A stretch of DNA of 58,383 nucleotides, filler included, from Porpidia crustulata (GCA_964255105.1; 3 parts of 3 records of this genome joined end to end with filler, not necessarily neighbours in it); one strand, 5' to 3'. Positions 19,480 through 51,728 are shown, counted from the whole stretch's first letter. Made by a program: numbers and translations. The notes: generated by a model from the letters alone, not told the origin.

Positions 19480-19579
19480 NNNNNNNNNNNNNNNNNNNNN
19501 NNNNNNNNNNNNNNNNNNNNNNNTTAATTAATTAANNNNNNNNNNNNNNNNNNNNNNNNNNNNNNNNNNNNNNNNNNNN
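19480..19579. other. Artificial contig linker (44 N + TTAATTAATTAA + 44 N)
   Basis: Palindromic all-frame stop spacer centred in an exactly 100-nt N block; the same structure occurs at 38950. Confidence 0.97.
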
Positions 19580-23037: not shown

Positions 23038-23139
23038 ACACACTCAATCATATCATGAATCGTGAATCCATCCCCAACATTCTTTAATAACCTCCTGATA
23101 CTATAATGACTCTCATGTGAGCTCCTAATACTGCTTTTC

Positions 23140-23769
23140 ATGAAAATGCTTTCACGATCAGATTACTATGTCACGCTCAGCATCACGAAATTATATACCA
23201 CGTACACCACTATCATCCAGCTAGAAAGTGACGTAATCCTCATAACGACCACTCAAGCCATATCATCAACGTCGCAGCACTCAGGTTCTTCCACTATCGA
23301 GTCGACAACTTCTAGCCGCGACGACAACACCTCAGGGTCAACAATTGGAATTATAGTGATATGCATTCTGGTGCCTCTGTTCCTCCTTTTACTGTTTTGT
23401 GCTTGTCTTTCGAAAGGAGACAGGAAAACTCAGGGACCAGAGGGACCGCGAGGTGAACGAGGACTGCAGGGAGAGCGCGTACTACGAGGAGTCCAGGGAG
23501 AACAGGGACAACATGGACCACAGGGAGATCGAGGAACACGAGGATTCCAGGGAGAACAGGGACAACATGGACCGCAGGGAGATCGAGGAACACGAGGATT
23601 CCAGGGGGAGCAAGGACAACATGGACCGCAGGGAGATCGAGGAGAACAAGGACCGCGGGGGGAACGCGGGGGGTTACAGGGAGCACAAGGAGTACAGGGA
23701 GTACAAGGAGTACAGGGAGTACAGGGAGTACAAGGAGTACAGGGAGTACAGGGGGTACAGGGGGTATAA
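23140..23769 (+). CDS. Single-pass membrane protein with collagen-like Gly-X-Y repeats (probably 3'-truncated)
   Basis: Ser/Thr-rich segment, TM helix [23 protein letters not shown], then about 35 Gly-X-Y triplets (GPE, GER, GEQ, GPQ, GVQ). Confidence 0.65.
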
Positions 23770-25314: not shown

Positions 25315-26560
25315 ATGGCTAAGAAATCTCTAGTCGTTCTGAGAGACTCTGGACGATTCACTATCGTTAGCGATCCGGTCATGTGCTGCGATGATACTCC
25401 AGCAAAGAGTGACAGAGATCTAAGAGAATGCGGCGGTGAGCCCATCATGGTCAAGCCAGAAGAGAGCGTGATCGCCGATTCTTCATTGGACCTTGAAGAG
25501 GATCTTCCCAAAGGTAGGATTTCCCTCGTCGTCATGAATATAATATAAATTCGACTTACGCTCCGTCCAGACATCCCCGAGATATCATTCATCAGCGTCT
25601 CAGCACAATCATCGTTTATCAACACAACGTCAGAGGCAGTGGAAGAGCTGGCTAGCTCGTCAGTCTCCCGATCCCCTCTTACATAGATTTTCGCAACAAC
25701 TGAGTCCTCTTCTTTTGTTCCAACAGGCTGTACAAGTCCTCTATCTTCTCGGTCACCGTTGGCCCACTCAAGGACACGTTCTCGGTCCATCAAGCCATCC
25801 TTTCGGCATCCCCCATCTTGAAGGAGAAATGCACGCATATGGTCAACGTGTACGGCTCTACTTGTCTGGAGCTGCTACACGTCGACCCAGAGTCATTTGC
25901 TCTACTCCTTGATTTCCTCTATACCGGAGATTTCAACCCCACTAAAAGCTGGTCGAGCAAAGATATCCTCGATATGAGGACCCTGGATTTAAAAGAAGAG
26001 AGCTCTGTCAGGTACTGCAAAGAAGGTCGCTCTACTGCCTTGCTCTTGATTATCAACTTCACCAACTGCAAGACCTTGTTATCCAAAAAAATGCAGATAG
26101 ACGATCCCATCCCGTTTCACAATTTTCTCAAGATTGCCGAGGAAACTTACGAGAAGCTTGGGGAAGGGCAAGGAGCTTCCTTCAGAGAACAATTCAAGAG
26201 TTAGGCCACAAGAGAATTTAAAGACAGTAAAGATACAGTATGGCAGAATTGGATTGCTGCTACAGTCATGAGAGGAGGTCCCTTGGCCGCAGATCTGTTT
26301 GCGAGTCTAGCGTCCAGTAATGAGCAAACTCTTCCAACTGAAGACAATGGAGGAGAAAACTCGTTGTCTCGAGCGTGGGTAGCCCAATCCTCCAAGCTCG
26401 GCTCTTTCTATTCTCCAAAACTCGAGGCGCGTAGAACGATAAGTCCAGGACCTGAATGGCGTAGACGCTCTAAGACATTGAGCAAACTAGCATACATCAC
26501 GCCACTTCCTTATAGTCCGAATATATAACCTACCTGCGACGCGTTCATCCAGCACCCATT
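25315..26560 (+). pseudogene. BTB/POZ domain protein with frameshifts and stops
   Basis: Fragments in different frames: YKSSIFSVTVGPLKDTFSVHQAILSASP / LELLHVDPESFALLLDFLYTGDF / FHNFLKIAEETY...GGPLAADLF. Confidence 0.65.
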
Positions 26561-26653
26561 CCAGTGCACGACCTAGCATCCTCTCCTCTCCTTCAATCGT
26601 CGGATTCCACAACATATAATCGTGGAACCGATAAACCTTTTATTTCCGCACAA

Positions 26654-29261
26654 TCACGTTTTCGTGTCCTTCTTTGACTTCTTGGCCTTTTTTGAGAACG
26701 GTGAGCTAGACCCTTCTGGAAGATTTGCAAAAGGAATCGACACGGCGTTGAAGGAGAAAACGGGGACCGCTTGATCCAGCTCAAGTGCAGGAGAGATTCG
26801 GGACACCTCAATATCGCTAAGTGTCGGTACTATCTCCAATTCTGAGGATATTGTAATTGACTCGGGTAGTCCAGTGGAAGCTTCTCCTACGATGTGCTGA
26901 AGTGGCCTCTCAGTACCTGCAATAGTCAATCAATCGACAGTGCAGCTTGCCTGGGATAGTTGTTCAAAGTCAGACAAAGTCTCGGCGTTTTCGCTATCGG
27001 GATCATGTCGCTTCGTCGGTTTTCGGGAATCAAGGGTGCGGAAATTCGATACATCAGCTCCATCTGAATTGAAAGTTAACCGACATGGGATCTGGAAAAT
27101 TGGATGGAAGGCATACTCAAAGTCTTGCGATTGGTATGGATCCTGCAGATTTCCAACCCTGCTTGTAGCACTACCATTTTCTGTTGCGTTAGCTCTCGAA
27201 GGCCCTGGTTTTGGTGAGATTCGGCTGCTATCCCACCGACAAGCTCTTTGTCCATCTGCAAAACGTGTGACGGTGAGAGAAGGTCACTGATGCCAGCAAC
27301 AAGGCAGCTTTCAATTGCATGGACTGCCACGTTGTCTATCACTGATTTCATCGCAACCTGACCGGTTATAAGTAAGATCTTCGGTATCAGATGAAGCGTT
27401 CTTACCTTATAGTAGGCTTCCATACAATCTAGGATCTCTGAGCAAGCATATCGGTCCATATCGGCCTCAGTCCTCGAAGAGAGCGCAGACAGGAGACTGG
27501 GGACTCTAGCGTTTTTCACACTAACGCTGTCCACATTGGTACTTTGATTATGGCCCAGAAATCTCCGTAGCTTGTGAGCAATCTCTGCTTCGTGGCGTTT
27601 TCCCCTCACTTTCTGAATGGTCTCGGTAAGATAGTGGTTGTAAGTAATTGGGTGGCCAGTCTGGTATGGTCTTAGGATTTCATTAAGCTTTCCATTCATC
27701 TCCTTGAGCTTTTGATCCATGAGAGGATCGATCACCTGACCAAGAAGGGCTTCCGAGGTCGGTTCGTCAGCCAAGTGCGAGATCAGTAGGTCGAGAAAGG
27801 ACCTCGTCGCTTGCCAGACGTTTCTCAGGTGCTGTCGAGCCAATCGTTCCCATGGCTTTGATTGTTCACAAAAAAGATCGCCAACAATGAGGGGACTGAA
27901 CATCCCCGGCAATTCTTGACCTCTAGTGATATTCAAAAGCTCCTTGATCTCATCGATAAATTCTGCTCTTGATACCGTCATCATACTTTCCGTTGGATGG
28001 GAAGAGCTGTTGAGTTCTTCCACAATGCGACGCTGCTGTCCTCGAAGTTGGACTGATTCTGCGAATTCGACATTCAGATTCTGGATGACAGCCCGAAGTC
28101 TCTTGGTGTAGCCGTTTGCTGAGCGGGACTCGCCAAAGTACCTGTGCCCATAAGAACCATCGAGAGAGGCCTTAGAGATCGCTTGAAATTCCTGGCTGAT
28201 CTGCAAAAGAAACAGTCGCTGTTGGTCAAAGCCGTCTCGATTGGGCCCGAGCCTAGCTAAGGTTCCACGACAGTCATTTATTTTGGTTTCGATATCGTCA
28301 ATGAGCATCGGTAGCTCGGCCCGAATCTGATCAAAGAGAACCTTGCTGAGCTTTTTCGCAAGGTATGGATACCAACAGTGTCCCTTGGAAAGTCCTTCCA
28401 GGGCCCCTGATCAAGGAATTGCCGCTCAGCATCATCCCGACCTTCTGCTGATAATTGTCTGGTCTCATAGCTACGATTTTTGAGGACGTGCCAGCCAAGT
28501 CGGAACGCGATGTCCATATTTCGAGCCAGATTCACAAAAGCTGACTCGCTTTCGGATCCAACGGAAAGCGTATCCGGCTTCGTGATGACCCCCATTGTTC
28601 GTCTGCCTTGTGGATCTACTTGTCTTGCCAACTTCAGCACAATCTGGTTGGCGTAGTCGTTCTTCGCAGAAATCACAGCGAGAATGATGCTCCTTCGGTT
28701 GATCATGTACTCATACACCATGCTCTGCACAATTTGAATGTCTGCAGCCGTCTGTAACTTATTCTCCGAATGGATCAGGCCTGGCAAGTCAACAATTGTC
28801 AAATGTGGTTGATTTGGCCCAGAGATTTCGAGGCGGAGAACATCCGTTGAGAATGCACTGGAACTTTGCGTCACGTCCATGCAAGATTTGGCATCGTGGA
28901 CGAGCGCCGAAAAATCTTCTAGATTGGCCAGATTATGCCGAAAAGCTAGGAGTTTCAGCTTTTCCTTTTCTGTACGTCCGGGGCCAGGTACTATGGCCAC
29001 AGAGATATTGACGCCTGACGTATGTCGAAGTATAACTTCGGTGGCAAAACGCGTGCAAAGATTGTCTTTGGTAGGAAATGGGATCCCGGAAATCGCCTCA
29101 AGCACGGAGCTCTTGCCAGATGACTGATCGCCGCAGACAACCAGCTGGGGAAGATTTACATACTGACTAATTCCATGGGAACGAAGCTTGTCGATGTCGT
29201 TCAGTAGAGCAAGCTTCTTGTCGGAGCCCAGTGTCTCAAGCCTGGACTTAGGATAATTCAT
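26654..29261 (-). CDS. Mx-like dynamin-family GTPase (copy 1), with a 1-nt frameshift in an A5 run at 28352-28356; 3' end uncertain
   Basis: LPQLVVCGDQSSGKSS (G1), LCTRFATE (G2), DLPG (G3) and TKPD (G4). Middle domain has RGQELPG and PITYNHY; GED-like region follows intron 27358-27405. Adding one A restores LRKKLSKVLFDQIRAELP. Confidence 0.88.
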
Positions 29262-29449
29262 TGTGAATACAGAGAGGTAGTAAACGTTACGCGACTATAC
29301 AAGACTCCACGGCTCAATACGAGAGTGTTTTTCGAAAGTTATCTAGAACAAAACGAAAAGGATGTTCCGTTACTGGATATCAGCGCGGTCTTGTTGTGAT
29401 AGCAATGAAAGGGGTGCTCTAGGTTCACCGGGGTAAGCCAACTGTTGTG

Positions 29450-29975
29450 ACATTGCTTATTGGTTCGCTACTAGAGATGTGAGAAACGCTTATCGTCTGA
29501 TACGCTTTGGGTCGTCGGATTCTTGCGTTATCTCTTTTCATCTCGAAGCCCTATAACGCAGTCATGAGTAAATCGCTGAAGGAAATCAGTAGAGCGTTGC
29601 ATTTGATTATGCATATCGTCGAAAAGATGTCAGCCGTCCTCACTGAGCCTCGACAAAAGTGTTTATGATCGACAGATGAGCGGACACAAAGTGTCTATCC
29701 AATAACAAGGCATGATGCCCGCAATGCATCTCGTATGTAGAAACCCACAATTCAGAACACACAAAGATTCGTCCACAATCTCCAGTCATGTACGCTTGAC
29801 TCATTGCTATCTGTCCCCACATCTGATTGAACGTCACGCTTTACTCTATTTGTTCATGACTGCATTCTGATGTATTGAGATGAAAAGATAACATACAAGA
29901 ACCTAACGCCACAAAATATATCGGACGATCCTTGTTTCTCACATCTTCTACAGCGAAGCAAGAAAAACGATGTGT
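29450..29975. repeat. Diverged inverted repeat (~120-bp arms at ~29450-29575 and ~29845-29975) in the divergent promoter
   Basis: Left arm: TTCGCT..AGATGTGAGAAAC..ATCGTC..TTCTTG..TCTTTTCATCTC..GCAGTCATGA..AAAT. The right arm carries the reverse complement of the same blocks in the same order and spacing. Confidence 0.85.
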
Positions 29976-30240
29976 TCCATTACGAGGCCCTTTTCCTGAA
30001 ATGAATTAGTTTGGTAATAGACGTTCTGCGCGCGAATATTTTAGACTGATCCTTAATATCACCCTTTTCATAGAACTTGAGACGTTTTATTTCCAACGTA
30101 TTGACAATTTCGGCCGTGTCAGCCAGTGGTTTCGCTGACTTTCTTGCTTTTGGCTCGCCCACATCGAGGATCGAAGGAATTTGGATGCGGGACCACAACA
30201 GTCAAAACCTCTAGTTCCCTGGAAAATTGCCGTATTTGTT

Positions 30241-30952
30241 ATGGCACTCATACTAGCCTCGACAAGATCGGCGTTCTTCCAACAGTATGATTTTCACTTT
30301 AACCTTCATGCCACGCTCCACACCGAATTTCGCCGTCTAGCGAAAGATCGTAAATGGAAACAAGGCTCGAACAGCAAGCTATTTGAGAAGGCTTGGGGTC
30401 GCTGTTTTGGCCCAGAGGTTCCCGTCGGCTGCGAAATCGATAGGGGGGAACGTCGTACTGGAGCTCAGCATGTCACGGATAATGACGAGTTTTTCTCTAT
30501 GCTACACAGCCTTCAAAGCCTCGACCTTGAGGGAGGGACAACCAAGAGGACACTAAAAGCCCAAAGGGTTGGCGCGGAATTTGTCTCCCATTACGGTAAC
30601 GACGCTCATGTCACGGAGAGATGGCAGGTGCTTTGCCAGGATTGCGGAGTCAATCCAGTACCACCATCTATCAAAAAATGCAAAAAGGTGCAGCCCCTTC
30701 CTGCGATGCGCTCGGCAGGATTTTGGTAGTACGTACCCATGCTGATGTCTTCTTGAGTTTTATTAGGCACTGAAAGGCTTAAACATTAACATATATCATT
30801 TCCTCGATGCGAAAAGAACCGGAAAAGTCCCGCATCGTTTTCCATCCCGACGGGATTTGGCGGTGTTCATGGAAAGACATCCAGAGAAAAGGTATCCTTT
30901 GAGTATGGCGAGACAGAACAAGTTCTTGAGTGTACTTCTCATCGAATGCTAG
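30241..30952 (+). CDS. Uncharacterised fungal 'F..HYG-D....W..LC' family protein (partner 1), 2 exons
   Basis: FFQQYDF..TEFRRLAKDRKW...EFVSHYGNDAHVTERWQVLCQDCGVNPVPPSIKKCKK / intron 30688-30766 / ALKGLNINIYHFLDAKRTGKVPHRFPSRRDLAVF...KRYPL...FLSVLL. Confidence 0.75.
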
Positions 30953-31795
30953 CGAGTTCTCTGAACCATCACCTCGATTACTAGGAAGTATTACACCCGC
31001 GCGGTACCTCGCTTCTCCGCAGTAAATATGTTTCAAGCATACCTCGATGTAATGGTCGACAGCGCGTCTATCCTGCTCATCTTTGTCTTTTCGCCTTCCT
31101 CCTCCTTCTGATTGTCCCACTGATCCTTGTTGTCTACGCTGATTAGAAAATCGGAGGAAGTATGCGTTCGGCCTTCGTCGCTACATTTGCATGCTCATTT
31201 GCGGGACTTTGACAAGACAAGACAGTTGCGGCACCGTGAAGGGACGCTAAAGACGGGAGTGCAGATATAACTGAAACTATCCTGATAGGGACTTGGCTGG
31301 GGGATCAAATATGGGGCTGATTATAGAGTATTAAAGTATTCCATAGCAGGCAGTAGTGTAGAAATGCTGGGGTTGAAAAACAATTATCCTGTTATACTGA
31401 GTTATTGCTCGCTTTTGTTTGCGGAGGTTGTATTATTTACATTGGGTTCGATTCCAGAGTATTCATCGTTGGCATATATATTTCGAGTGAATGATTTGAA
31501 AGCACTTGCTGTCAAAAACTTCAATGCGCCATTGATGTGAAGAACTTCTAAGAGATCAGGATTTTATGATTGTTTAGCACAACTCAACGATTAGGTCGAG
31601 TCAATCTTAATCTGATCTAAACCAAACGAACCTCTCCTGGTCTGGGGTATTTTCTGGGAGACTAAGCAGAAGTAACGGAGTTAGAAACCATATTAAGTCA
31701 AATTTGATAAACACGCCGAGATATAGATAATGAAGCAGTGACTCGATGATAGTAGCGAGCGCAATTCATGATCTATGATAGTGACATGATATACA

Positions 31796-34196
31796 CTATG
31801 ATGTAGCACTCCCCATAACACCACGAAAAATACTTCGTCCGTCATTCAACTTTTTAATTTTGCTTTCAAGAAGATCCCTTTGTCTCCTCGCCGACGGAGG
31901 CTCAGAGGCGATTGCTTGCGCTTCCGGGTCAGACATGCCGTTCACTGTAATGGGAGAAAAAATTTTCTCCAGGCCGCGCACGATGTGTCGCTCCACGACT
32001 TGCGTAGTAATGTTGTCGACGAAAGTTTTAGTGAGAGCTAAGCAGAATGAGTATGGAATAATCGATCAGGGAACTCACTGACCTTGTAAATCGAATGAAG
32101 ACAGTCAAGAGCTTCTTCACAACTATGATTCTCCATGTCCGGATCTATCTCGCCAGAATATTCTCGCGCTGCTTTTTTAGTATCGACATGTGCACTTGTA
32201 TGATTTGAGCTACATCCTGGAAGTATGACGTGTTGGGTCGCGTTGTCAATGCAACTGGCCAGAGACATTTCTTCTCTTTCGCGACGTCTCTTCTTGATCG
32301 TGTCAGTGTAGTAGTGATTATATGTTATCGGATAGCTTTTGATGTCTTCGATGATCCTTTCCATCTCTTTGATAGAACCGACGAACCTCAACTGTAGAGC
32401 ATCTTCGACCTTGGACGACCAGAGACGGGTGTATACATCCTTGGGACATTTCTCTCGAAGCAAAGCATCAAGGAATCGATTGCAGACGTCCGCAACATCC
32501 TCAATGTGATGCTCGGCCATCTGTTGCCATTTACTAGATTGCTCCCAGAAGAGCTCACCAACCAACAGCGGATTGAAGTTACCGGGTAGCTCTTTACCAC
32601 GAGTCCGAACCAAAACTTCTCTGACCCAGTCCATCGCTCTAGATTTGGACCAATGAACCGGTGGTACCGGTTCTGTTATTGAGATAATGGGGATCACTCC
32701 TGGCTTAAGTGCTCTATCGTCCGTCTCCGCTTCGTCGTGTTCGCCGATGTGGTATTTGTAGCCGTGCGTGCGCAAAAGATTGGAGAATTCGCAGTTCTTG
32801 TACTGAATAACAGCCCGCAGTCGACGTATCGTCGAGGAAGATTCTACTGAAAATGCATGATCGGCGCTATGAGCAAAGTATTCTCCTTCGTAGTGCCCAT
32901 TGACTGCAGCTTTGCCAACCTCGTAAAAGTCCAGGCTGAGCTGCGTCAAAAAGGCTTTGCACTCCTGCGACGTAGCTCTCGAATTACCCATTGCTTCCAG
33001 TTGAAGTTGTGTATCCGCGAACGCTTCCTCGAGATCCTTTCGTAGTTTCGGGAGCTCCTGCTTTACGTGATCGAAGAGCAGCTGGCTAAGCCGATCCCGT
33101 AGAGACGTAATCCCAACACACTCTTTGGGCAGGGTGGAGAAATTCGATCTTCTGAAGTAGTTGATTTCAGAGACATTGCGTTGCTCAAATGAGCTTGAGC
33201 CCTCTTCATAACTGCGGTTCTTCAGTACGTGCCAGCCCAACTTGAAAAATATGTCCTCGTTTCGTGCCAGACCGAGAAAAGCGCTTTCGCTGCCAGAGCC
33301 GGAAGATAGTCGATCGGGTTTTGTAATGATACCAAGCGTGCGATCTCCCTCTGGGTCGACTTTTCTAACCTTCTTCAGGATACCTTGATTGGCATAGTCG
33401 TTGGCTGCCGAGACCACAGCCAGACAAATTGTACGAGGCTGGCATATGTAATGGTCGGTGATCTCGGTGACAAGCTGGACATCCTCTTCAGTCACTCCTC
33501 TGGTCTCAGTCTGCACGAGCCCCGGAAGATCGACCAATGTCAGCTGAGGTCTGGAACGACCTCCAATTTCGATACTCAAGACATCTTTGGCGAAGGCCTT
33601 GGACTTGGCGGTAGATTTGTTATTGATTCCCATAAGAGCCGTTGCTTTGTCCATTAAGGAAGGAAGGTCTTCAAAATCCGAAATGGACTCTTTAAAAGAT
33701 TCGATGGAAGCTCGTTCTTCAGGGGGCCTTTCGTTGTCTGGTATCACTTTAATTGTGATCGCGTCACTCGTGGCACGGCGTAAAATGATTTCTGTGGCAA
33801 ATCGCGTACAGAGATTATCGTTTCTTGGGAATGGGATTTCTGTAAGGGCTTCGAGGACTGAACTTTTGCCGGCTGATTGATCACCGCAAACGACGAGCTG
33901 CGGCAGGGACAGCGTGCTCTCAAGACCACATTGGCGAAGCTGATCGACAATGTTAAGTACCTTTCGTTGTTCGGCGCTTTGAAGGCCTTCAAGAGACGAA
34001 GTTGTTTCCAATGCTTGAGGCGGGTTGTCAATCTCCGGTTCCATGAAGCTGCCGGCGACTGACAGGTCATCTGAATCGTCTGGATGTCAGCAGCCCATTC
34101 ATGACGCAAGCAAATAACCAGATATCATCACTTGCCTGAAGAATTAGTTGAGGAATCTCGATCAGGCAAACCGGCCATTGAGTATGATGCAGACAT
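31796..34196 (-). CDS. Mx-like dynamin-family GTPase (copy 2), apparently intact
   Basis: GDQSAGKSS, LCTRFATE, DLPG, TKPD, RGKELPGNFNP, PITYNHYYTD and a GED exon KTFVDNITTQVVERHIVRGL. GC-AG intron 34080-34135 joins exon 1 in frame; the last intron is near 32038-32080. Confidence 0.92.
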
Positions 34197-35064
34197 GATA
34201 TTTAAAGAGAAGATGGCAACTTGAAACAGCGAACAATAGTGATCAGGAGGGAAGCAGTGGGTGATATGTGAATGAGAATCATGCATGCTGAACTTCAACC
34301 AAGCAACGCGCACTTGAAGAAACGCTATCTTAAAGCAAGGCAGACTTCTTCTCATTGAGCGCATGACACGTGATAAGCTCATGCGTCTCGCCATTCCCTG
34401 TTTATTACATATCTCACATATAAGTCTTATCAATCTATTGCGATTCGTATTCGTCTTTTGGGAAAAAGCCGATATAAGCTGCAAATCGCTCAATTGAGTC
34501 GAATGACGAAGAGCGCGGCCGAAAGTGATGAGCTGCAGATAGTTCCGCTATATTTTTGCTGTTAGGGCAGTAGATGACTCATTGGAGTATGCAAAAGGAC
34601 AACCAAGCCAATGACTCTCTTTTCAACGGCTCCAGTAAAGGTGCCCATGGGGAAGTCCAATGAGCAGCTCTTTGAGGCACGAACCATGGCATAAATTGCA
34701 TCCGCGAAACACTTGCGATAGACGTCAGCCACTCATGTCCTCGGCTTCACCTTATGCTCATTGAAAGATTGCCCGGTGCATATTTGCTTCGATACGAGTT
34801 ATTCGAATCAGCCATTCAGATGAACATGATAACCCATAGATCACGGCTCGCAATCTTCGATCTAAAACAAAGTCATTAGATTGGTCAATAACACGACAGC
34901 TCCAGTTCTTAGTCACATGCATAAATCATTGGACCACCCGTTTTTAATATGACTTTCCTACCTCCTCCTTTTCCTTATTCCACTTCACCTGAATTCACAT
35001 TACACACGATTGAACGTGCACTTTCATTGTCGCCAAGCTGATTTTGTGCAAAGCGGCAGCTGAA

Positions 35065-35152
35065 ATGGCTGGCATCTGCTACCAATTCGAGGAGTCGGGC
35101 ACGTGCCGTTTCGGAAACGAGTGCAAATTCTCCCATCTCTTCACGAATGAAG
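35065..35152 (+). other. CCCH zinc-finger coding exon upstream of partner 2
   Basis: ATG 35065 gives MAGICYQFEESGTCRFGNECKFSHL, i.e. C-x8-C-x5-C-x3-H. I found no in-frame GT-AG splice to the 35264 frame, so the link is broken or miscalled. Confidence 0.75.
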
Positions 35153-35263
35153 GTTCCCATCCACGTTCCCTACTGGAGCTTAAATAACATGTGATAGCAG
35201 TCGTTCACAAATAGTAAAAACAAGAATGAGAACAGGAAGGAGAAGAAAAAGAAGAAGACACGC

Positions 35264-35852
35264 ATGAGTCATCCCTCGGCGGATCACCTTGACATATTCT
35301 TCACTCAGTATCCCGCATTCAGCTATCGACAAAATTTTTCCTCCACTGAGGAATTCTATCGCATGTGCGACTTCTTTGGTTGGGACCGCGATGATCCTGA
35401 ACGAGAAGAGGCCCATGAGAGCTTCAAGAAAGCTCTGGTGCTACAGTTCAATAGCCTTTATGGGACCGAAGTTGACGACCTTCAATCCCGGCGGGGACTA
35501 TTTCTCGCCCTGGAAAATTTCCCGCTTCCTGAAGACCTCAAAAAGGCTAAAAAGGTAAGCCCCGAACGTGGATTCTGGGGAAACGACAAATTAGAACAAA
35601 GATAATCGTGAAAATACTTGGGAATAGATGTTTGAGGGGAAATTCGTCAATCTTGTCGACCTTGTTGACACAGGAAATACGGGCTAGTGCGCTACCCAGT
35701 TCGATACACTTGAGGAACCCAAGGAGTACACAATCAAAACAGGGAAGTTCTTTCCAAAAGAGTCTGCGTATGCTGGAGGGATGCTTAAGTTTCTCCTGCG
35801 CGAAATTTTCAACGAGCATGTGGGTGGAACGTCGCGTCGGAACCGTCACTAG
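35264..35852 (+). pseudogene. Uncharacterised 'FN..YG-D' family protein (partner 2), in-frame TAG at 35685-35687
   Basis: LDIFFTQYPAFSY..EEFYRMCDFFGWDRDD..FKKALVLQFNSLYGTEVDDL..LPEDLKKAKK / intron / FVNLVDLVDTGNTG*CATQF...YTIKTGKFFPKESAYAGGMLKFLLREI. Same architecture and intron position as 30241-30952. Confidence 0.75.
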
Positions 35853-36227
35853 GCCTTAATCGTCGAGACTTTTGCGCGAATGTGAGCACGAACATGCTCG
35901 ACCAGAGAATTTGGGTACTGACGTGATCCAATATTGACACTATTTTCATGGAAAGAGTTTAACGTTAGCTTAGGAAGTATACTTGCTTTCGTATTCAGAT
36001 TATCACGGATGTATTAAGATAATTCCTTGGCAATTGATTTTCACGTCACGTGCAGCCTGACTTATTTACGCCCTACCGTTGCGCTACCTCGCATTCGTTC
36101 CCAACCGACAATAGACATCCAATAGACGCAATCTTTCGCCGACCACTAGAGCGTCTCACTATACATGCCACAATCAGAGCCCAGAGCTTTAAACACGATT
36201 ATAAGCCGTACGGAATGACCAATTAGC

Positions 36228-36910
36228 ATGGGAAGACGTACGAGGAAGAACGACGAGTACTACGCGGTGATTCGTCGTTTCTACCTCACTGTTCCAACAG
36301 TCTTCTCGTCCTGGTAACCATTCCATAGGTAGTGAGATCATCATGTCCCATAGTCACTGATCATGACCACTGCTTTAGGGGAGATGTACATCCTTTGGTA
36401 GATGGTTTTTCGAAGCCAGTGATAAATGGGTTTGTTACTCTAGCAGAGGCTGAAGCGCATATGAGAAACAACGGAGTAGAGGACCACAAACGCGAAATTA
36501 AATAGGGGGCTTGGACAACAACACCAGAGAAAGGGAAAACTGCGTATTACGCAGTCGCGAATGGCCGTGAACCAGGGATTCGGGAGTATTACTAGTAAGT
36601 CTGAGAATCTATTCGCACGTAGCTCGTCTAACTCATGGACAGCGTCAGCGGTGGTTTGGAGCCAGAAGTAGTGAACTTCTCTGGTGCTTGTCATAAGCGT
36701 TTCCGAACATTGGCACAGGCAGAAGCCTTCATAGCGGATTGGGTGGAGATGCATGCTTGTATAGTTAAAACCAAGATCAAAGAGGAGCTGTTGGTTGGTC
36801 ATCGACCGGCGAAATTGAAGAGATCACCAGTTGAACGTAGTTTGAAGACTAAGAGCCACGACGACGACGACGAGCTTACAGACGTCTTCAGCAAGACCGG
36901 AATTGAGTAG
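36228..36910 (+). pseudogene. Protein of two RNase H1 N-terminal (Cauli_VI, hybrid/dsRNA-binding) domains, no catalytic RNase H; in-frame TAG at 36503-36505
   Basis: Domain 1: EYYAVIRR..VPTVFSSW / GDVHPLVDGFS...GFVTLAEAEAHM. Domain 2: AYYAVANGREPGIREYY / ..EPEVVNFSGACHKRFRTLAQAEAFI. Two introns. Confidence 0.8.
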
Positions 36911-37122
36911 TGCTGGATGACTATCTTATATCTGGCAAAAACGCATCACCTTGGGGGCATTTAGCACGAGAGCCCAATTGGGCTCGGCTTCGGCTGCCAG
37001 CAAGTTTTGCCCGACGGACCGTGAGAAAGTTCCTGATCAAATGGCAAGGGAAGACGGACAATACGGCGTGGCGAAAATAGCCTGTATGCATCGGACATTA
37101 TTTCTATCTGTTCACTATTTGC

Positions 37123-37950
37123 CTAAATAATAACATGCAGATCAACACATGTTGTGTAAATCTCATCCTTCCGCCTTATCGAACCATCCGGAGTATCAAG
37201 AGAAGATGGCCAATCCCAAACCCAATATAGTGTACAGACCCCCTCTATTGTGTCCTCCGGAACCTGCACTGTATTTCGACACCACCTATTTGGCCCCTGT
37301 CCTGGATCTGCTTCGAAGACTTTTTGTCTGAGCTGGAAAATAGGACTCGAAAAATTGGGTCCATAACATTCTCCGTCATCGAAGTCAAACTCTGCGAGCA
37401 GTCGTCCACGTGCATCGCCCGCCGTTCCATCCTTGTTCCAGACTTTGTGAATGTTGAGCAGGGTATCGGTTGAACGAGACTCCTTAGTTCCGTATACGAA
37501 AACTGTTCCAGGCGTCACCTTCCCGGGGGTTGCATGCGGAAGCGTGACATGCCCATTTTCTTGGTATCTTAAAACAATCTCCTTGCCTGCTTTCACCTCC
37601 AAACGTGGGCTACCTTGAGACTGGTACGGAAATTGTTGACTGGGCATGCAAATTTTGTCGCTGGATATGATCTCGACGTTTCCTGAACGCCCATTTGGCG
37701 GAAGTAAGTAAGTCATGACCGTACCATTATGAAGAAACTCTGGCGAGGTTCGAATCACTACAGAATAGTTAGCCGAGTATACACCGCTCAACGAAAGTTG
37801 CAAATCACCATTGCCTCTCGGATAGCCGGGGTTTTGGAATCCGACATCTTCGACAAGGGAGACCTGCTCAACCCATGAGTGACAACTTATTGTCATCACA
37901 AGAGCCATCACAATCGCGGACACACATGTCTTGACTGTAAATTCAATCAT
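37123..37950 (-). CDS. Secreted uncharacterised protein with predicted N-terminal His (LPMO-like / DUF7492-like)
   Basis: Signal peptide ends ISC|HSWVEQ. Motifs GYPRG, YQENGHVT, FDDGECY, TLYWVWDWP and EIYTTCVD. Probable in-frame intron near 37765-37810. The DUF number is from memory and needs checking. Confidence 0.7.
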   Translation of the reverse strand: MIEFTVKTCVSAIVMALVMTISCHSWVEQVSLVEDVGFQNPGYPRGNGDLQLSLSGVYSANYSVVIRTSPEFLHNGTVMTYLLPPNGRSGNVEIISSDKICMPSQQFPYQSQGSPRLEVKAGKEIVLRYQENGHVTLPHATPGKVTPGTVFVYGTKESRSTDTLLNIHKVWNKDGTAGDARGRLLAEFDFDDGECYGPNFSSPIFQLRQKVFEADPGQGPNRWCRNTVQVPEDTIEGVCTLYWVWDWPSSLDTPDGSIRRKDEIYTTCVDLHVII

Positions 37951-38949: not shown

Positions 38950-39049
38950 NNNNNNNNNNNNNNNNNNNNNNNNNNNNNNNNNNNNNNNNNNNNTTAATTA
39001 ATTAANNNNNNNNNNNNNNNNNNNNNNNNNNNNNNNNNNNNNNNNNNNN
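38950..39049. other. Artificial contig linker (44 N + TTAATTAATTAA + 44 N)
   Basis: Same structure as 19480-19579. Confidence 0.97.
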
Positions 39050-39848: not shown

Positions 39849-40064
39849 ATCTTGAAGGCGAGGATACGACGTCCTCCCATGTACTTTGTATAAGGCTATG
39901 AAATCTTTATTTGGCACGAAGGTTGGGTCAATTGGATGAGACAATCTAGAAAAGTGAGGCTCATGTTTCCATTGCGAGCTAGCAGCATCTAGTACTATGG
40001 CTCTTTATATCGGTTCCATTGACCCAGTTATTTTAATTCTGGCAAAAGCATTTCCCTCTCTTTC

Positions 40065-41134
40065 ATGTCCAAGCAGCATTCATCCATCTTCGGACAATAC
40101 AATACAATGGGTCATCAACAATTTCCGGATTTACAGGTTTCCATAATTGACGAAGATCCTCATCTGCGCCAGCGTTCTGTGCCGATGAAGACACTCGTGT
40201 TGGGATATCCTCGTACAGGAACTTCATGTACTATATATACTGTCTCAAAGTCATCATCGAAACGTCGAGCTAATAAGGCCGTAGCAATGCAAATAGCATT
40301 AGAACAGCTGGGCTTTGGGCCATGCTATCACATGCGAACGGCCATGAACCAGTACCCACGCGATTGCGAGATGTGGCTAGAAGCTTTTCAAGCAAAGTAT
40401 GAAGGAAAAGGTGTCTTCGAGAAGCAGCAATGGGATCAATTGCTTGGATACTACAGTGTAAGTTATATGTCGCACGCGATGTTTGGGAAGAGGAAGTTCT
40501 GAGACCTCGAAAGTCCGTCTGCGACTTGCCAGCCATTGTTTTTGGTCCGGAGCTCATGGCCGCCTATCCAGATGCCAAAATCATTCTTACCAACCGAGAT
40601 GTCGACTCGTGGCACAAATCATGCTCCCAGACCCTTCTCCAAGCGAGATGGTACTGGCTCCACAATGTCCTGCAACACGTTGACTGGGTAACGGGCCTAG
40701 TCCACTCATTGCGGAAGAAGTACTGGCAGTGCCTCTTTCAGGACGACTTCGAAGCAAATGGGAAGACCGCCATGCGTGCTCATTACTTGTTGATTCGCAA
40801 CATCGCACAGGAAACCGGGCGCCAGGTATTAGAGTTTCAGCTTGGGGATGAATGGGATCCACTCTGTGAATTCCTCGAAGTGGACGTTCCATGTCATCCG
40901 TACCCAAGAGTCAATGAGGGCGGCAACTGGATTCTGAAAATGCATCAGCGCGCCCACCAAAGGGCTATAGCTGTCGTATCCAGGTTTTTCCGCTTCGCTC
41001 TGCCAATGACAGCGATCGGTTTGGCGGTGTGGTTTGCAATGGCGAGGCCACCGCTACTCTCAACCCACATTGGTCACAATCCTCTTCTCGGCCTTTCTTT
41101 TTCGAAGCTATCTGAGATTAGAATGGGGCATTGA
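40065..41134 (+). CDS. P-loop sulfotransferase-family protein (Sulfotransfer_4 type) with C-terminal TM helix
   Basis: VLGYPRTGTSS, ALEQLGFGPCYHM, DLPA..F..ELMAAYPDAKIILTNRD.DSW, WDPLCEFL, PYPRVN. Two introns; ATG 40107 is an alternative start. Confidence 0.85.
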
Positions 41135-41706
41135 CGGTACGACCAAGTTCATTTCTTCCAAGCTCATGCGTTGTTAGGAACTATAGATCCGTAAATGCAC
41201 CATGGGACGCACTGCTGTCGCATATGCGAGATCGAAGTTCAAGCAGACTAGAAGTAGGCCGATTTCTAGTGAGGAAGGACGCGCTACTGCAGCTTGCAGT
41301 TCAAATCTCTGCGCCCCGCATGAAACTCTCTTTTCTCCGCTCTCTCAAAGCGGAATTCCGCCAATGCCTACTAAATGCACCTAAACCGGAGATGCTCGTA
41401 TCAACACTGAAAAGCGAAGGTGAACGAATGATTCAGGACGTGGGTATCCGGTGCTTGCAAACCTCAACAATGTTATCATCTAGCCCAAAATTAACCCCTC
41501 TGACGGATGACTTGGACTGCTATGAACGCGCAAGTTTGGCAAGCCCGCAAAGTATGTTCTGCTTGCGATGTCGCTCAATCGGCCCAGCCTCTAGTGGCAG
41601 CCAGGCATACTTTCATGTGTTGGAGCTTTATCTGCCAGACCTGGTAGGTGTATGGGGATGATCCAATCAGTCTGTGTCTATAGATCGTTGCACACCTCGC
41701 CGTATC

Positions 41707-42865
41707 ATGGAGAATACCAAGTACAACGATTTGCGTATTGCAGAAGTACAAGTCCTTGACCTCAAAGCCCTTCGCAATGGCGACAACGTCGAAAGGAGAA
41801 GACTTTTTGACGCTTGCTGTAAAGATGGCTTCTTTTATCTTAACATGTCAGGCTCAGAGCCCAAAATACATACGGCCATTAGCAGCATCTACAAGCTCGA
41901 ACAGCAATTGTTCAGTTTGTCAGAAAATGAATTGATGTATTATGACATCGACAAGCTTTCCCATAAGAAGTTGAATGGGTTCGTAACTTCGCCATATCTC
42001 TGCACGAACAGAACGCTTGAGTGACAATCGACAGCTATAAACCATTGGGTCGAAATCATGGCGAGCTCACGGGCAGGAAAGACGGATTCCAGTCCTACGC
42101 GGTATAGACCTTCCAATCGGCCATCCGTAGCTCAAAGCACCTGTCAGCGGTAGCTGACTTTGTTTTTAAAAGGTACCTAAAGACGGTATCATGCGGCTGG
42201 GAGATCAGGCCAACTTCAAGCGTCCTCAGGTCATCGATGTCCATATGTCCTCTCTGCACACCCTTGCATCAGCAGTCTCAAAGGCAGCTTCAACAATCCT
42301 CTCGAGTCTCTCATCAAGCCTTAAGCTCCGACCAGAAGAAAGTCTCCAAAATATCCACAACACGCATCTGCCCTCCCCAGATCTTGTCCGCCTATTAAAA
42401 TACCATGATCAGCCGTTCTTCGAACGCGGTTCCTCGCACATAGCGCACACTGATATTGGCTCTCTGACATTCCTCTTCACCGAGCAATTCGGCTTGCAAA
42501 TCATAGGTACGGAGAGCGAAGAGTGGGAGTGGATGCAACCCCGAGAGGGATGCGCTATCGTAAACATTGGCGATTGCCTTAGCTTACTGACCAACAAAAC
42601 ATTTCGCTCATGTCAGCATCGCGTAAAACCATTACCGGGACAAGCAATGAAGGAACGGTATAGCTTTGCTTATTTCATGAGGCCTGACGAGAATGCCCTT
42701 ATGAGAGCGTTAAAAAGCCCGTTGATACCTGAGGTAGAAGACCAGGGCGAGGAGACCGTCACAAGTGGCGAGTGGTTGCAGCTGAAGTATACCATGTTGC
42801 GGCGGGATACTTGGAATAAGGAGAAAAGTTGGATGCTCAATGGAGTCGAGCGGAGCAAGTTGTGA
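41707..42865 (+). CDS. Fe(II)/2-oxoglutarate dioxygenase, IPNS/DIOX_N type
   Basis: LFDACCKDGFFYL, RLLKY, HTDIGSLTFLF (HxD), VNIGD, HRV and RYSFAYF (RxS). Two introns. Confidence 0.92.
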
Positions 42866-43261
42866 TAGATGCATAGACTCCAAGCCACTCGTCGACAACG
42901 TCCAAGCTTTGTGACATGCATGCTAAGTCAGTATCTTGATAAATCCTTGCATGAGATTTCCGTGGACGCTTCGAGTAAATAGGACAACAGAGGTGCTCAT
43001 GGAATTCCTGGTGTAACTCTGGTAGCTTAAGAAGATCATTTATAGCTTTATATGACATGACTTGGAGCACAGATGATTACGTACCTTGAATGGGTAGATC
43101 CGGACAAAATCCCGACTGCTGTGTGTGCCACTTCTAGTAAAATATCAATCTCAACTATTTCGACCAACCGCCGTATAAGTCAGCATCTTTCTTGAACACT
43201 GGGTCGGTCCACAGCTTTGAATCCTAATGTTACTTTGCAGACAAACTTTTGGATCAATAAA

Positions 43262-45477
43262 ATGCCGGACCAAGTCCCAAATGACGAGACACGACCGCTC
43301 TTATCTCCATATCTATCCCCAAGTATCTCGCAAACAAACGATGATGATGGAGAGCATACAGCGGCAATATCGTTTGGACTGACGAAGTTTATACTGGCAC
43401 TTATAGGTACGCAATCAACCGCCAAGGATATCTACAGCAGGATCTTGTTCCTACTGCGGCTGATTCCACTCAGGCGTTTTTCTGGCAAACGCAGATACCT
43501 CACTTGTCGTGGCCACATACCCATCAATTGCGTCCGAGTTTCGGGACTTGGGAAATGGGCCATGGTTGTTAACAATTTACACGCTTGGATACAGTGTCGC
43601 TCTGCCGGCTGTGAGTTGAATTTCTAGTATCTCCGTAGTTCCTCCACGACTGCCAGAGCTCGAATGCAGTCAAAACAAATCCTTCGTAATCCCAAGCATT
43701 TGAGCATTGATTGACTTTGTTCTCGCTAGTATGGAGCCATCAGCGATGTTTTCGGACGGAAGAAACCTCTTCTCGTCGCTTATGTTTTGTTTGGCATAGG
43801 ATGTATCGTCTCGTACGTTCAAATCAAAAGTCATCTTGGGCTCATGTTCTCGCATTCCCTTGGAGTCTTACAAAGATCAGAGCAACAGCATTTTCGTTGC
43901 AGCAAGTCATACTTGGCCGAATGGTATCCGGATTTGGTGGAGCCGGAATGACAGCAATGGTTTCTGTCATCATCACGGGTAGATATGTTAATTAGTACTC
44001 GAAACTTTTGTCGCATGACTAAGTTTCTTCAATCAGATTTAGCACCACTCTCAAAGGTTGCTTTACTAAGGAGCTACGTCAATGTGGCAGCAGTCGCAGG
44101 AAGGAGCGCAGGAGGGCCCATCGGTGGGCTTCTTCTTGACAGTATTGGCTGGCGATGGTATGGTACTGTATGCAATACTTTGAGGTAAAATCTGAATGAG
44201 AGTGCAGGTCATTTTTTGCTCAAGTGCCAATAGTGCTCGGATGTCTTGTTACGGCACTCTGGCAATCGTTACCAACTCCCACTCGAAATGGCCAGAAGCA
44301 ACGTCACCTGGATATATTGGGAATAATGGCCTTCGCATTGACAATGTTGTCCTTTTTACTGTTTGTCAATTTTGCAGGCAAAAAAGGAGGGGCCCCCAGT
44401 CCTGTCTTGATTCTGCTCGCATTGTCATTCGTCTTCTTTGCAATTGCCTTTTTGTTGATTGAGATTTACTTGGCTGCAAATCCGATGATCCCCTTTTCGA
44501 TGCTGAAGCAGGACAGGTTGGGATTCTATTTTGCTGTGCAGGTGTTGCTGCTTGTCGCACAATTTACTGTGAGTTTTCGTTCTCAAAGCGGTTCTTACTA
44601 ACGCACGGACAGATTGTTTCGAACGTGGCAACGTACTTTGCTCGTACGGAGAATGCCTCAAACTCGATTGCCGCACTCCATATCACGCCTGCTCCTGTGG
44701 GTAATGCCATTGGCGCTCTAGTTGCTGGCAAATTGATCAGCAGGTAAGTGTTGCATGATATATTGCTATTGAAATCTGACGTCGTTTGCACAGCACAAAG
44801 CGGTACAAAGTCATTTCAGTAGTAGCTGCGAGCTTGTGTATTGCAAGCTTCATTTTGGTAATGTTGAGGTGGCAGGGCCAAATCAATGTGTGGGAGTCTC
44901 TGTACATCTTCCCAGCAAGTCTAGGTATTGGTTTGCTGAATTCATCTCAATTCATCGGCTTGTCAGCCTCGGTTGAGAAAAGTCAATTAGCCACAACCAT
45001 CAGTATATTTTTCCTCAGTCAGCAGATTGGCATGATGATCGGGGCGAGTGCGTCTTCGGCTTTGCTTCGCAAGACTTTCCGAAATGCCTTACTAGACAAA
45101 TTGGGCAATGGTCGGGACAGCAGACAGGTAAGTATCCTGGGATCTCCTAATATCCTCTCTCCAAGATCACCAAGAGGATACCTATCCATAGTGTTCAGGC
45201 AGAACCACACAGAGTCAATCCAGTATCCGCGCTAATTCGACTTGGTACCAGGTTATCAAAGATATACTCAATGACAGCCACGCCGCGCTGCACTTGCCCA
45301 AAGCTTTGCAAGCAATCGCCCTATTGAGCTATGTCCGTGGCTTCCTCTTCGTATCAAGTGAGTGGTCAAACTCCTGCTCGTTGATGGATGTCTGACCCCT
45401 CCGCAGTACTCTCGGTCTGCAGCTCAAGCCTGACACTGCCCTTCTTGGTGTTTCTCCCAGAGAGGACTATTGAATAA
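43262..45477 (+). CDS. MFS drug/amino-acid transporter (Vba/DHA14-like), multi-exon
   Basis: VFLANADTSLVVATY, YGAISDVFGRKK, GRMVSGFGGAGM, GRSAGGPIGGLL..IGWRW.F, and many TM helices. Confidence 0.85.
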
Positions 45478-46704
45478 AAGCATCAACAACGGAGGGACGA
45501 TTCTTCCATGATAGCAAAAGTATCGACATTAGGAATAATGGTACCTTACGATACAATGTCATAAGTAGGTGGATGTTAAGCTGTTCATGAGATAGCTGGC
45601 CTACACCGCTGTTCTTGATATATCTATAGGCAATTCCTGACCAGCCGCAATATTATGTGCAGCTTGCTCCTTACAGTGTCGCTATGGTGTGCTTGTATTT
45701 CCTAGTAGACAACATCTGAGTGTTCAGATCTTGATGTAGTTCGGGCCTTCAAGGAATGTTTAAATTACTTCTGCCATCGTCTTGGGCGATCTTCTTCAGT
45801 ATCCGCCATCTTTTGCTTATCCATGGAATCGATCACAGAAAAAAGTAGTGAATTGCAGTTACGGTAAGCGCCGTAGACTTTGTAGCCTATGCGGAAGGTC
45901 TTTGAAAATTATAAGTCTCCGATTTACTTTCCTCCTCCAGCCTCCGGAATGACTGTACTAAGCCATGAGGGACCTTCAAGAACCTCTTACTACTATCGTC
46001 TCCATCTGTTTGATGCGGTTGAGCGTATGATGTGATGGCCTCCCAATTTCGGCTTGTACCCTGCCTTCGTGTTACAGTAACTAGTATGCCATTCGCCTGA
46101 TCTTGATAATAGGCTGGGGTGGCGGATAGATTTTACGGTTCGACTGGCGTAAGATCACCAAATACCAAAACGGACGATCCCGTCGAATGTCACGTGATTC
46201 ACTGTCAAAATTATTCCATCATTTGTCTCCTTACCAACATTGCATCTTATGCCCTACATAGTTCAAACGCTCTTGTCTTGAATCGTGTTCAGGCATAGCT
46301 ATCGCAACTGTCCGTGGCCCCTGTCATACGCGCCTGTCTCTGATGGCTTGGAGCTATCGTCTGACTTGGATCTAGGGTTCACAGTCTCCTCTGGTTGACA
46401 ATATCGTGTTTCTATGTGCTATACATCAATTCTATTTGCGCCGACGGGGAGAAATCATCTGTACCGCCTGTCGCCAGTATCTATCATATGTCTGAACAGA
46501 ATCGCTCTGTAATGACAACCCATCGCACAAGGAACTTGATACAATTGCAAGCTAGGATAACGAAGAGCGAGACCGCAAGTAGACTTCGAATGTCCTACTT
46601 GGGATCTGCATCCCGTCGCTATCAGACCGACCAGTCACGTCTCGAACAGCATTTTTGTTACCTACCAACATCCTTGAGCGCTCAATTCCATCCTATGCTT
46701 AGAG

Positions 46705-47874
46705 ATGTCTGCGTTACCGCGATGTGTTGCTCTAGCAGGTGCAGGTGACTTGGGCCGCTATGTCTGCGAAGAGCTGCTCAAATCTAGTCAATTTCGAGTT
46801 GTCATTTTGACGCGTGGAGTATGCGCCTCCACTTAAAACAGTATTCAGAGCTCATCAAGACTGACATAATATATTGAGCTGACTACCAGACCTGTCATAA
46901 ATGGGTCACAGATCTGCATATTCCCAGCCACAAAACCGACTATACTGTGTCTTCAATCCTCTCGATTCTAAACAATACCCGCGCCTCCACATTGATCTCC
47001 TTCATCAATGATCCTACGCCCAATTATGTTACTACTCACGCTGCCATCCTTGAAGCCTGCTGCCAATCGGCCACATGCAAGCGTCTCATACCATCTGAAT
47101 GGATCGGTGACTCAAAGACCTATCCGTTGAAGCCTGAGTACTACGCGACATCGCGGGAACCCTTTAGGCAAATGTTGAAAGAGCAAACGGAAGTTGAGTG
47201 GACGCTGTTTAATACTGGATGGCTGGCAGACTATTTTTTGCCGAGACGGAAGTCACACATGAAACCTGTACCTCTCGAGTTTCCCATGGACCCAAACGGC
47301 TGGCGGGCACATGTGAGAGGAACGGGACATGAGACACAAAGCTGGACGTGTGCCAGGGATGTAGGGCGGGCGGTGGTGGAGCTGCTCAAGGCTGATGAGT
47401 GGGTGAGTAAAAAAGATATTTCGTTGCGAGACCTCACATGCAAATGCTCCGCACTTTGGGAAAGACTTTCAACTAGCTCGGACTTATGCTGAAATGGCTA
47501 CTTAGGAGACGCATACATACGTGGCCGGTGAATGGAGCACATTCAACGAAGCTATCATGACAATGGAATCTTTCTATGGTACCTGAAGCCCCATCTTTGA
47601 TTCCCAATTCAACGCACCAGCTAACCTGAACCCCTGGCTAGGCCGCCAAGTGCCGCTTACCTACAAATCCCTTGAGGATATACAGGTGTCCTTTGCGAAA
47701 AGTGCAACCATGGAAGATAAAATGTTGGCGCAAATGGAGGAGGTAATAGCAATGGGATGTTTGGCCTGTCCGAAAGAGAAGACACTGCGACAGCGTGACA
47801 AGTATTTCAAGGGGCTACGATTTCTCGGCTTGAAGGATTTGCTGAAGTATGCCGAGGACGTAGAGTTTGTGTAG
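46705..47874 (+). CDS. NmrA / isoflavone-reductase-like NAD(P)-binding protein, multi-exon
   Basis: MSALPRCVALAGAGDLGRYVCEEL (Rossmann motif), KRLIPSEW, WTLFNTGWLADYF, TCARDVGRAV. Confidence 0.85.
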
Positions 47875-48104
47875 ATGGAGGAAAGGAACCAGAAAGATCC
47901 ACGTCTCCAATTTTGCAGGTCATTCAGTGTATAAAGAAGAATTATCAACCACTTTATCATCGGATAGAAATTACTATTCGTCCAAGCGGGCTTCTTCTGC
48001 TTGGTTTGAAGTCTATTAACTCGATTTCTTGAGTTTTTCAAGACAAAACCCTGGAATACGACCTCATCTGAATAACGCTAAAATCTACAGTACAATCCCC
48101 AATG

Positions 48105-49929: not shown

Positions 49930-50354
49930 GCTGTTTGATTTTACTTCGTCAAAATATATATGGGCGCGAAAATGTAGTCGAGAACTGAAGAGATAGAGAG
50001 TAGTAGAGAGCGAGACGGAAGTGCGAGAGCCTACATACTGAACTCAGCTCGCACACGCCGTAGTGATGGTGGTGTTGATGGATAGGATTGTGACCATCCC
50101 CTTATGCGAAGACATTGATCTCATGATGGACCGTGTGGTGTGGACGAATGTGGACGAACGTTACAGATATCTCGGAGGGGAGAGACCAGCTACCACGCTA
50201 AAGCGAATAGGGAATAGAGTAGACAGGCCGGCACACCTGCCAGTCGACCTACAACCTCAAAATGCTATTCATCTACTAACGGTCTACCAGTATTGTACCT
50301 GATCAACTTCCTAGGCGCCCCTTTATCCCCCCTCCCATCTGGTGCCCCGTCTCA

Positions 50355-51446: not shown

Positions 51447-51728
51447 ACTATATCCGCCCACAGCAAGGTGATACTAGATAAAAAGGAAGCTTAATTAGAA
51501 TGGATCACTGCCAGTATTATAGAGCCGTTTAGTAGGTAGGGGTACCCCGCTCGAAAGGTAGTGGCTACAACAATCAAGACGATTGGTTCATATCACTGCC
51601 CTGTGGTCCCTCAAGTCAGTGCCTTGGAAAGCGTGGCTTGAATCAAGACCAGGTATTGATATCCATATACGTGAGAGATCTAGGACTTGAGCGTCGCTCT
51701 CTGTGATATATCTATATTGTAACCATAT

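Follow-up and report, generated by a model that had tools for sequence, protein, structure and literature searches.

A head-to-head pair of Mx-like dynamin and partner-family genes, probably kept by descent and tandem duplication and now decaying in Porpidia crustulata

The window analysed here is a stretch of 58,383 nucleotides (filler included) from Porpidia crustulata (GCA_964255105.1). Between positions 26,654 and 36,910 it carries the same two-gene unit twice: an Mx-like dynamin gene on the minus strand (DYN1, DYN2) lies head-to-head with a small plus-strand gene (P1, P2) of a large unnamed fungal family, and the second unit is followed by a gene with two Cauli_VI domains (the RNase H1 N-terminal domain, PF01693). 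We consider it probable that descent and tandem duplication have maintained this pair, that it occurs in this lineage only and that it is now in decay. The ancestral unit would have been an Mx-like dynamin gene placed head-to-head with a small gene of the partner family. From this single adjacency an old tandem duplication would have produced DYN1–P1 and DYN2–P2, and a third, diverged pair of the DYN2–P2 type, found elsewhere (loci L028/L029), would descend from the same ancestral adjacency. The region would gain and lose genes fast, the pairing would not be obligatory, and DYN1, P2 and the double Cauli_VI gene would have been disabled here only recently, with DYN2 and P1 still under purifying selection.

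A preliminary description of this DNA had reported the tandem repetition, and we recovered all parts of both units, with both sets of genes homologous. The start codons lie 979 nt apart in the first unit (DYN1 to P1) and 1020 nt apart in the second (DYN2 to the CCCH zinc-finger exon of P2), in agreement with the ∼0.9–1 kb of divergent spacing given before. DYN1 and DYN2 share 49% of their residues across 301 aa of the GTPase domain (E 1e-99) and 31% across 349 aa of the stalk (E 1e-47). The match between P1 and P2 in BLASTP is weak (E 0.007); the profiles of their relatives, compared by hhalign, matched with 97.2% probability (E 3.1e-11, 91 columns). By this profile evidence the two partners are homologous and members of one family, as had been claimed. 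The age of the pairing and the strong divergence of its copies were likewise upheld, the genes having been duplicated as a pair and having stayed paired through deep divergence. Chance was rejected as the origin of two pairs of the same order and orientation, as one tandem duplication explains them.

Both dynamin genes have recognizable GTPase and stalk domains. In DYN1, Dynamin_N (PF00350, E 1e-37) and Dynamin_M (PF01031, E 1.3e-18) were found in two different frames; in DYN2, which is intact, they matched with E values of 2.9e-32 and 9.8e-23, respectively. The G1 (GDQSSGKSS/GDQSAGKSS), G3 (DLPG) and G4 (TKPD) motifs are seen in the alignment of the two. The last exons, where a C-terminal GED would lie, align with each other and gave no Pfam GED match at E ≤1. 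Among solved structures the top nine matches of DYN2 are Mx1/Mx2 proteins (E 8.6e-37 to 7e-30), followed by dynamin (3e-28) and by Mgm1/Vps1-type proteins (5.5e-27 and weaker). The predicted products are thus members of the dynamin superfamily, in its Mx-like branch (the fungal ‘MxF’ kind). An intron after (Y/I)YK had been reported for both genes. In DYN1 it directly follows YYK; in DYN2 the sole in-frame splice lies 4 nt past the DYN1-type site and uses a GTGAGT donor. The ratio of nonsynonymous to synonymous substitution rates (dN/dS) of DYN2 against its relatives is 0.13–0.15. An open reading frame (ORF) at 26654–26929 could be a further 3′ exon of DYN1.

The intron after a KK pair that had been noted in both partner genes is common to P1 and P2, and its splice is confirmed by an annotated Lepraria protein (P0027). 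Relatives of P1 numbered 41 among 54 candidates, at 45–87% identity, the named ones coming from the lichen fungi Xylographa pallens and Lepraria finkii, which places the source very probably among the lecanoromycetes; its dN/dS against relatives is 0.27–0.45. Upstream of the P2 core, the ORF at 35065–35187 encodes a C-x8-C-x5-C-x3-H finger (32.4 bits against a cut-off of 20.5, E 8.1e-8). Relatives have this exon joined in frame to the P2 core by a GC–AG intron (GCAGGT..AG in L007, L010, L017 and L015; the donor is GCAAGT in L001), and a fused zf-CCCH was found in four of the eight P2 homologues from the protein collection. The CCCH exon, previously described as preceding partner 2, is by these gene structures a part of the partner 2 gene. 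A GT–AG intron at 35153–35197 was rejected as the join between finger and core, since it results in a stop codon both in the window and in L007.

The next gene consists of two Cauli_VI domains only, as had been stated. Matches were obtained on its three exon pieces (E 0.0098, 0.0016 and 1.3e-4; the last piece reaches 22.6 bits against a Pfam cut-off of 21), covering profile positions 19–43 of domain 1 and 2–13 and 22–44 of domain 2. An intron interrupts each domain, so that single pieces score low. No RNase H catalytic domain and no other family was matched by these pieces. Table 1 lists the coordinates.

Table 1. Predicted features of the two head-to-head units and their surroundings in the window
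Feature	Position	Strand	Exons or parts	Remarks
DYN1, Mx-like dynamin copy 1	27076..29261	-	29261-27406, 27357-27076	48-nt intron
MITE-like element, DYN1–P1 intergenic	29457..29964	.	29457-29573, 29848-29964	117-nt inverted arms
P1, partner 1	30241..30952	+	30241-30687, 30767-30952	intact; intron after KK; no CCCH exon
DYN2, Mx-like dynamin copy 2	31796..34044	-	34044-32079, 32037-31796	intact; 41-nt intron
CCCH zinc-finger exon of P2	35065..35148	+		zf-CCCH (PF00642)
P2 core, partner 2	35198..35852	+	35198-35554, 35628-35852	ATG at 35264
Double Cauli_VI gene	36228..36910	+	36228-36313, 36379-36594, 36643-36910	

We surveyed the linkage from the partner's side in one metagenome scan with the P2 subfamily, which gave 46 loci. 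Eleven of them form the clade of the window (86–92% protein identity). DYN2 stands head-to-head with the CCCH-bearing P2 in nine of these 11 loci, and the other two have <0.8 kb of upstream sequence. The double Cauli_VI gene is present downstream in nine of the 11, on the same strand as P2 and 375 nt from it, and in none of the 35 other loci. Outside the window clade there are 24 distinct partner genes in the set, with 14 places assessable for a neighbour (at least 2.5 kb upstream). A dynamin gene was found beside the partner in one of these 14 places (L028/L029), divergent and 1.75 kb from a CCCH exon. The GTPase domain of the L028 dynamin is 63% identical to DYN2 and 45% to DYN1; the L028 partner gene likewise matches P2 and not P1. 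In this small set of three pairs, the two of the window and that of L028, the divergence of dynamin and partner sequences is congruent. The 13 places without a dynamin have varied neighbours, among them a major facilitator superfamily (MFS) transporter, PP2C, bZIP, an ammonium transporter and several transposons. That description had named a lack of linkage to dynamins in other genomes as evidence against a functional module; linkage was seen within the window clade, and the single case outside it comes close to such a lack.

The partner tree and the gene content of related loci also bear on how fixed the pairing is. The closest sister genes to the P2 clade are those of L013 and L015, which have no dynamin; L028 branches further out within the same subclade. 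In L017 homology to the window starts at 29254, at the DYN1 start, and a pogo-like transposase and a fungal kinase gene stand upstream in the place of DYN1; in L018 no DYN1 match was found upstream of P1. A contig of run X2, on the other hand, connects the 5′ end of DYN1 with the intergenic region (29134–29677). In L007 and L010 a 4.8-kb insertion (1483–6346 in L010) separates P1 from DYN2; one ORF in it is P-loop-like and has no Pfam match, and another weakly matches a 3′–5′ exonuclease. The absence of a dynamin from the closest sister genes, together with the gain and loss of genes at the locus, indicates that the pairing is no family-wide rule.

Three of the five genes, DYN1, P2 and the double Cauli_VI gene, are disabled in this genome as it reads, which the preliminary description had missed. 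DYN1 has a 1-nt frameshift at an A5 run (28352–28356), and its alignment with DYN2 requires a shift at VGIHTLR|KKLSKVLFD; one added A in this run would restore TLRKKLSKVLFD, matching SLRDRLSQLLFD of DYN2. DYN1 is therefore a probable recent pseudogene. In P2 the splice donor of the CCCH exon is GAAGGT (35149–35154) instead of GCAGGT, and the remaining in-frame joins to the core that we found in the window use an odd GCTTAA donor. Position 76 of P2 is R, where all 11 other sequences have W, and an in-frame TAG at 35685–35687 replaces the CAG or CAA (Q) of 11 window-clade relatives. P2, too, is probably a pseudogene. The double Cauli_VI gene has an in-frame TAG at 36503–36505, between its two domains, where nine relatives have CAT (H). 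The relatives with sense codons at both TAG sites are ∼89% identical to the window at the DNA level. P2 and the Cauli_VI gene have dN/dS values against relatives of 0.28–0.32 and about 0.45, respectively. By these values and those of DYN2 and P1, the genes would have been under constraint for most of their divergence and the losses would be recent. Each pair now has one intact and one dead member, which speaks against an obligate system of two components. L012/L014 likewise have a disabled P2, with a TAG in its CCCH exon and a shift of frame in its last exon.

The frameshift and stops could instead be errors, or minor alleles of a mixed sample, with all five genes intact. The depth is just ∼11–12×, the DYN1 lesion sits in a homopolymer, and the ORFs flanking each lesion remain long and conserved, all of which would fit such errors. 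On the other side, the Logan contigs of run X1 are identical to the window over all lesion sites (0 differences; records 3 and 7), and one of them spans 27005–29641 with 0 differences. These contigs were probably built from the same reads and are not independent, so that they exclude an assembler artefact and not a sequencing artefact. In addition, P2 bears three changes at separate sites (the lost donor, R for W and the TAG) and the Cauli_VI TAG is two substitutions away from the CAT of the relatives. We consider errors of this kind very unlikely to account for the lesions. Repeat-induced point mutation (RIP) was rejected as the single cause, because it would explain CAG→TAG but neither the C-to-A change in the donor, nor the T-to-C change (W to R), nor the 1-nt deletion. 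Separately, run X1 contains additional contigs that are 85–92% like 26471–27312 and 36555–36751. The differences in this run are dominated by C>T (44) and G>A (53) over A>G (15) and T>C (16), and the extra contigs with this excess may stem from duplicates mutated in a RIP-like way or from a second strain in the sample.

Several points weigh against a lineage-confined, decaying pair. The metagenome sample is small (14 places) and biased to one subfamily, and orthologues and paralogues are inseparable in it. All counts start from partner genes. The lesions are known from one sample at the above depth. Moreover, three diverged pairs keep the head-to-head layout at 49% and about 30% identity, a persistence that exceeds usual neutral synteny and could reflect selection for co-regulation. 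As the layout is long-lasting, the two genes of a pair may use a shared bidirectional promoter. None of the longest direct repeats in 26000–37200 (18–28 nt with 74–89% identity) links the two divergent promoters, as a common promoter motif would. Retention by descent and tandem duplication, followed by decay, is still the explanation that we prefer.

The family to which P1 and P2 belong reaches far beyond this locus. A profile built from the relatives of both collected 2577 clusters (50% identity) at E ≤0.001, 1316 of them at E ≤1e-10. Its consensus reads FF.YP.F.Y ... VNLVDLVD ... FP...A.AGGLLK.LLR.I, and the partners P0045 and P0027 had no Pfam match at E ≤1. An AlphaFold model of P0045 (78 sequences) is all-helical, with a mean pLDDT of 86 and ∼97 over residues 41–170; the predicted domain of the family has roughly 150 residues. 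Foldseek of this model against the PDB returned nothing at E ≤0.001, and the best VIA-align match of the partner model had a Z of 5.5 over 59 residues. zf-CCCH is present in 22 of the 150 best family representatives. Among 49 longer representatives we found CCCH in five, a JAZ finger, which binds double-stranded RNA (dsRNA), in two, WD40 in three, ABC_tran in one and Ifi-6-16 plus CCCH in one; a dynamin was fused to the partner domain in none of the 49. The profile search gave two members of at least 488 aa, with tyrosinase and ABC_tran, respectively; both are Rhizoctonia proteins whose gene models may have been merged, and neither has a dynamin fusion, which is weak evidence. Because of the fusions to RNA-binding zinc fingers, the partner probably acts on or with RNA. 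The ESM Atlas provides leads only: a predicted model of the partner domain matches a JAZ-finger cluster (template-modelling (TM) score 0.87), a 388-aa Ascomycota cluster with Cauli_VI in all members matches at TM 0.65, and the best score of a feature search was 0.86, whereas limiting the search to named clusters yielded nothing usable. A very large family without a Pfam entry or a clear solved fold, repeatedly joined to RNA-binding zinc fingers, deserves a name and a test, and this by-product may be of more lasting use than the locus.

Some further observations concern the family. Tandem pairs of partner-family genes occur in other fungi (L022, at 10007 and 11341; L038, at 6137 and 10010), and some family proteins have two to six domain copies per chain (P0050, P0053, P0060 and P0134). 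P0164 combines Ifi-6-16, a CCCH finger and the partner domain, which may reflect a genuine fusion or the merging of gene models. Partner-family genes are often near mobile elements (L013, L017, L027, L034 and L038), including DUF3435, pogo-like DDE_1, copia-type RVT_2, PDDEXK_12 and LINE-type RVT_1. The L045 gene has a frameshifted copy in L025.

The RNA-related fusions raise the question of whether the dynamin is an incidental neighbour, the functional link being that between the partner domain and RNA-binding modules such as the finger of P2 and the downstream Cauli_VI gene. The fusions of the partner domain to CCCH and JAZ fingers, the Atlas cluster in which Cauli_VI occurs with a partner-like domain, and the closely spaced, co-oriented P2 and Cauli_VI genes of the window clade agree with this idea. 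It has against it that Cauli_VI was found neither in 136 ORFs upstream of partner genes at the 13 loci without a clear CCCH match nor in the 25 commonest families of the 150 partner representatives, that the adjacency of P2 and Cauli_VI is unseen outside the window clade, and that the Atlas row compares two predicted models. We regard it as quite unlikely.

The preliminary description had proposed a defence cassette of RNA sensor, adaptor and Mx GTPase. In a working cassette, viral RNA or dsRNA would be recognised by the CCCH-bearing P2 together with the protein of two Cauli_VI domains, and these would in turn bring in or switch on the Mx-like GTPase; the lesions would reflect the fast turnover typical of immune genes. 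An antiviral role has been proposed for fungal MxF proteins from their gene turnover (PMC11789081), and such turnover is visible at this locus. The fusions to CCCH (22 of 150) and JAZ (two of 49 longer members), the TM 0.65 lead to a Cauli_VI cluster and the persistence of the pair in three diverged copies point in the same direction. These are countered by the 13 of 14 assessable places outside the clade and the closest sister genes, all without a dynamin, by P1, which has no RNA-binding exon, and by the loss of P2 in L012/L014 as well. The pattern of losses here, DYN2 kept with P2 dead and P1 kept with DYN1 dead, and the restriction of the Cauli_VI neighbour to nine window-clade loci also speak against it. 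The proposal was neither supported nor refuted, with linkage in one of 14 places, sister genes lacking a dynamin and three genes disabled. We judge it unlikely, though a legitimate hypothesis because the locus shows MxF-like turnover.

A broader form of this idea, which we put forward as speculative and very improbable, is that the helical partner domain represents an undescribed module of RNA-linked fungal innate immunity. With CCCH, JAZ or Cauli_VI it would recognise viral RNA or dsRNA and pass the signal to the head-to-head Mx-like GTPase, the pair being quickly duplicated, reshuffled and lost. If true, it would be the first non-animal Mx system in which a dedicated sensor or adaptor is genetically linked to the GTPase. 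The naming of fungal Mx-like dynamins dates only from 2025, and through a conserved genetic partner they, and RNA-triggered immunity of fungi beyond RNA interference, would for the first time become accessible to experiment. The locus itself is a lead and not a system: the pair is real, old and duplicated, yet the linkage has a narrow spread and, in this genome, half of the duplicated pair is in decay.

The DYN1–P1 intergenic region holds an element resembling a miniature inverted-repeat transposable element (MITE-like), the inverted arms of which are 70% complementary. A depth peak lies within it at 29586–29939 (runs X1 and X3), and a second copy of 29457–29826 is found inside the insertion of L007/L010; the element appears to be multi-copy. 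The surroundings are gene-dense, with housekeeping genes on the left (rhomboid, Mob1, Leo1, ribosomal L1 and Arf) and metabolic genes on the right. There, sulfotransferase, 2OG-Fe(II) oxygenase, MFS transporter and methyltransferase genes lie in a row (40023–52577) and may be a small metabolite cluster. A plus-strand ORF of 219 aa at 23110–23766 encodes a collagen triple-helix repeat (PF01391, E 1e-17), which is unusual for a fungus; the opposite strand reads as a PCT/PCS-rich repeat. Two stretches, 19480–19579 and 38950–39049, each consist of two 44-nt N runs with 12 bases between them, the second sitting within a proline/glutamine-rich repeat ORF.

We compared the locus with known defence proteins. 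LeoA of the Eleos (LeoABC) system in PADLOC resembles DYN1 and DYN2 in being a dynamin-superfamily P-loop GTPase encoded beside partner genes; the match, however, is limited to 28 residues around the P-loop (E 1.6e-4) and falls short of full length. P1, P0045 and P0027 had no match among the PADLOC models. ZAP is a CCCH zinc-finger antiviral protein, and P2 has the same C-x8-C-x5-C-x3-H type of finger, but one where ZAP has four, followed by an unrelated helical domain. Cauli_VI is the hybrid-binding domain of RNase H1; the window gene has two copies of it and lacks the RNase H catalytic domain.

The animal proteins Mx1/MxA and Mx2/MxB are the best solved matches of DYN2, with E values of 1e-36 to 1e-35 over the GTPase domain and the bundle signalling element (BSE), and they share the G1, G3 and G4 motifs (GDQSxGKSS, DLPG and TKPD). 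They differ in that only ∼300–330 residues align, the stalk being unmatched by sequence. Fungi are not known to have an interferon system. A study of the dsRNA response in Neurospora (Choudhary 2007) reportedly lists Mx-like and 6-16-like genes among those induced by dsRNA.

No publication dealing with gene neighbours or partners of fungal Mx-like dynamins came up in our literature search, and the passages of PMC11789081 consulted include no study of fungal gene neighbours; the head-to-head partner of the window is in this respect a difference from MxF1 and MxF2 as presented there. According to that work (Langley et al., PNAS 2025), MxF1 and MxF2 are of unknown function and their turnover hints at an antiviral role. 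The MxF proteins have the GTPase domain and the stalk that we predict for DYN1 and DYN2, and a C-terminal helical region without a PH domain that may also be present in these two, and they share with the genes of the window a copy number that varies between close relatives.

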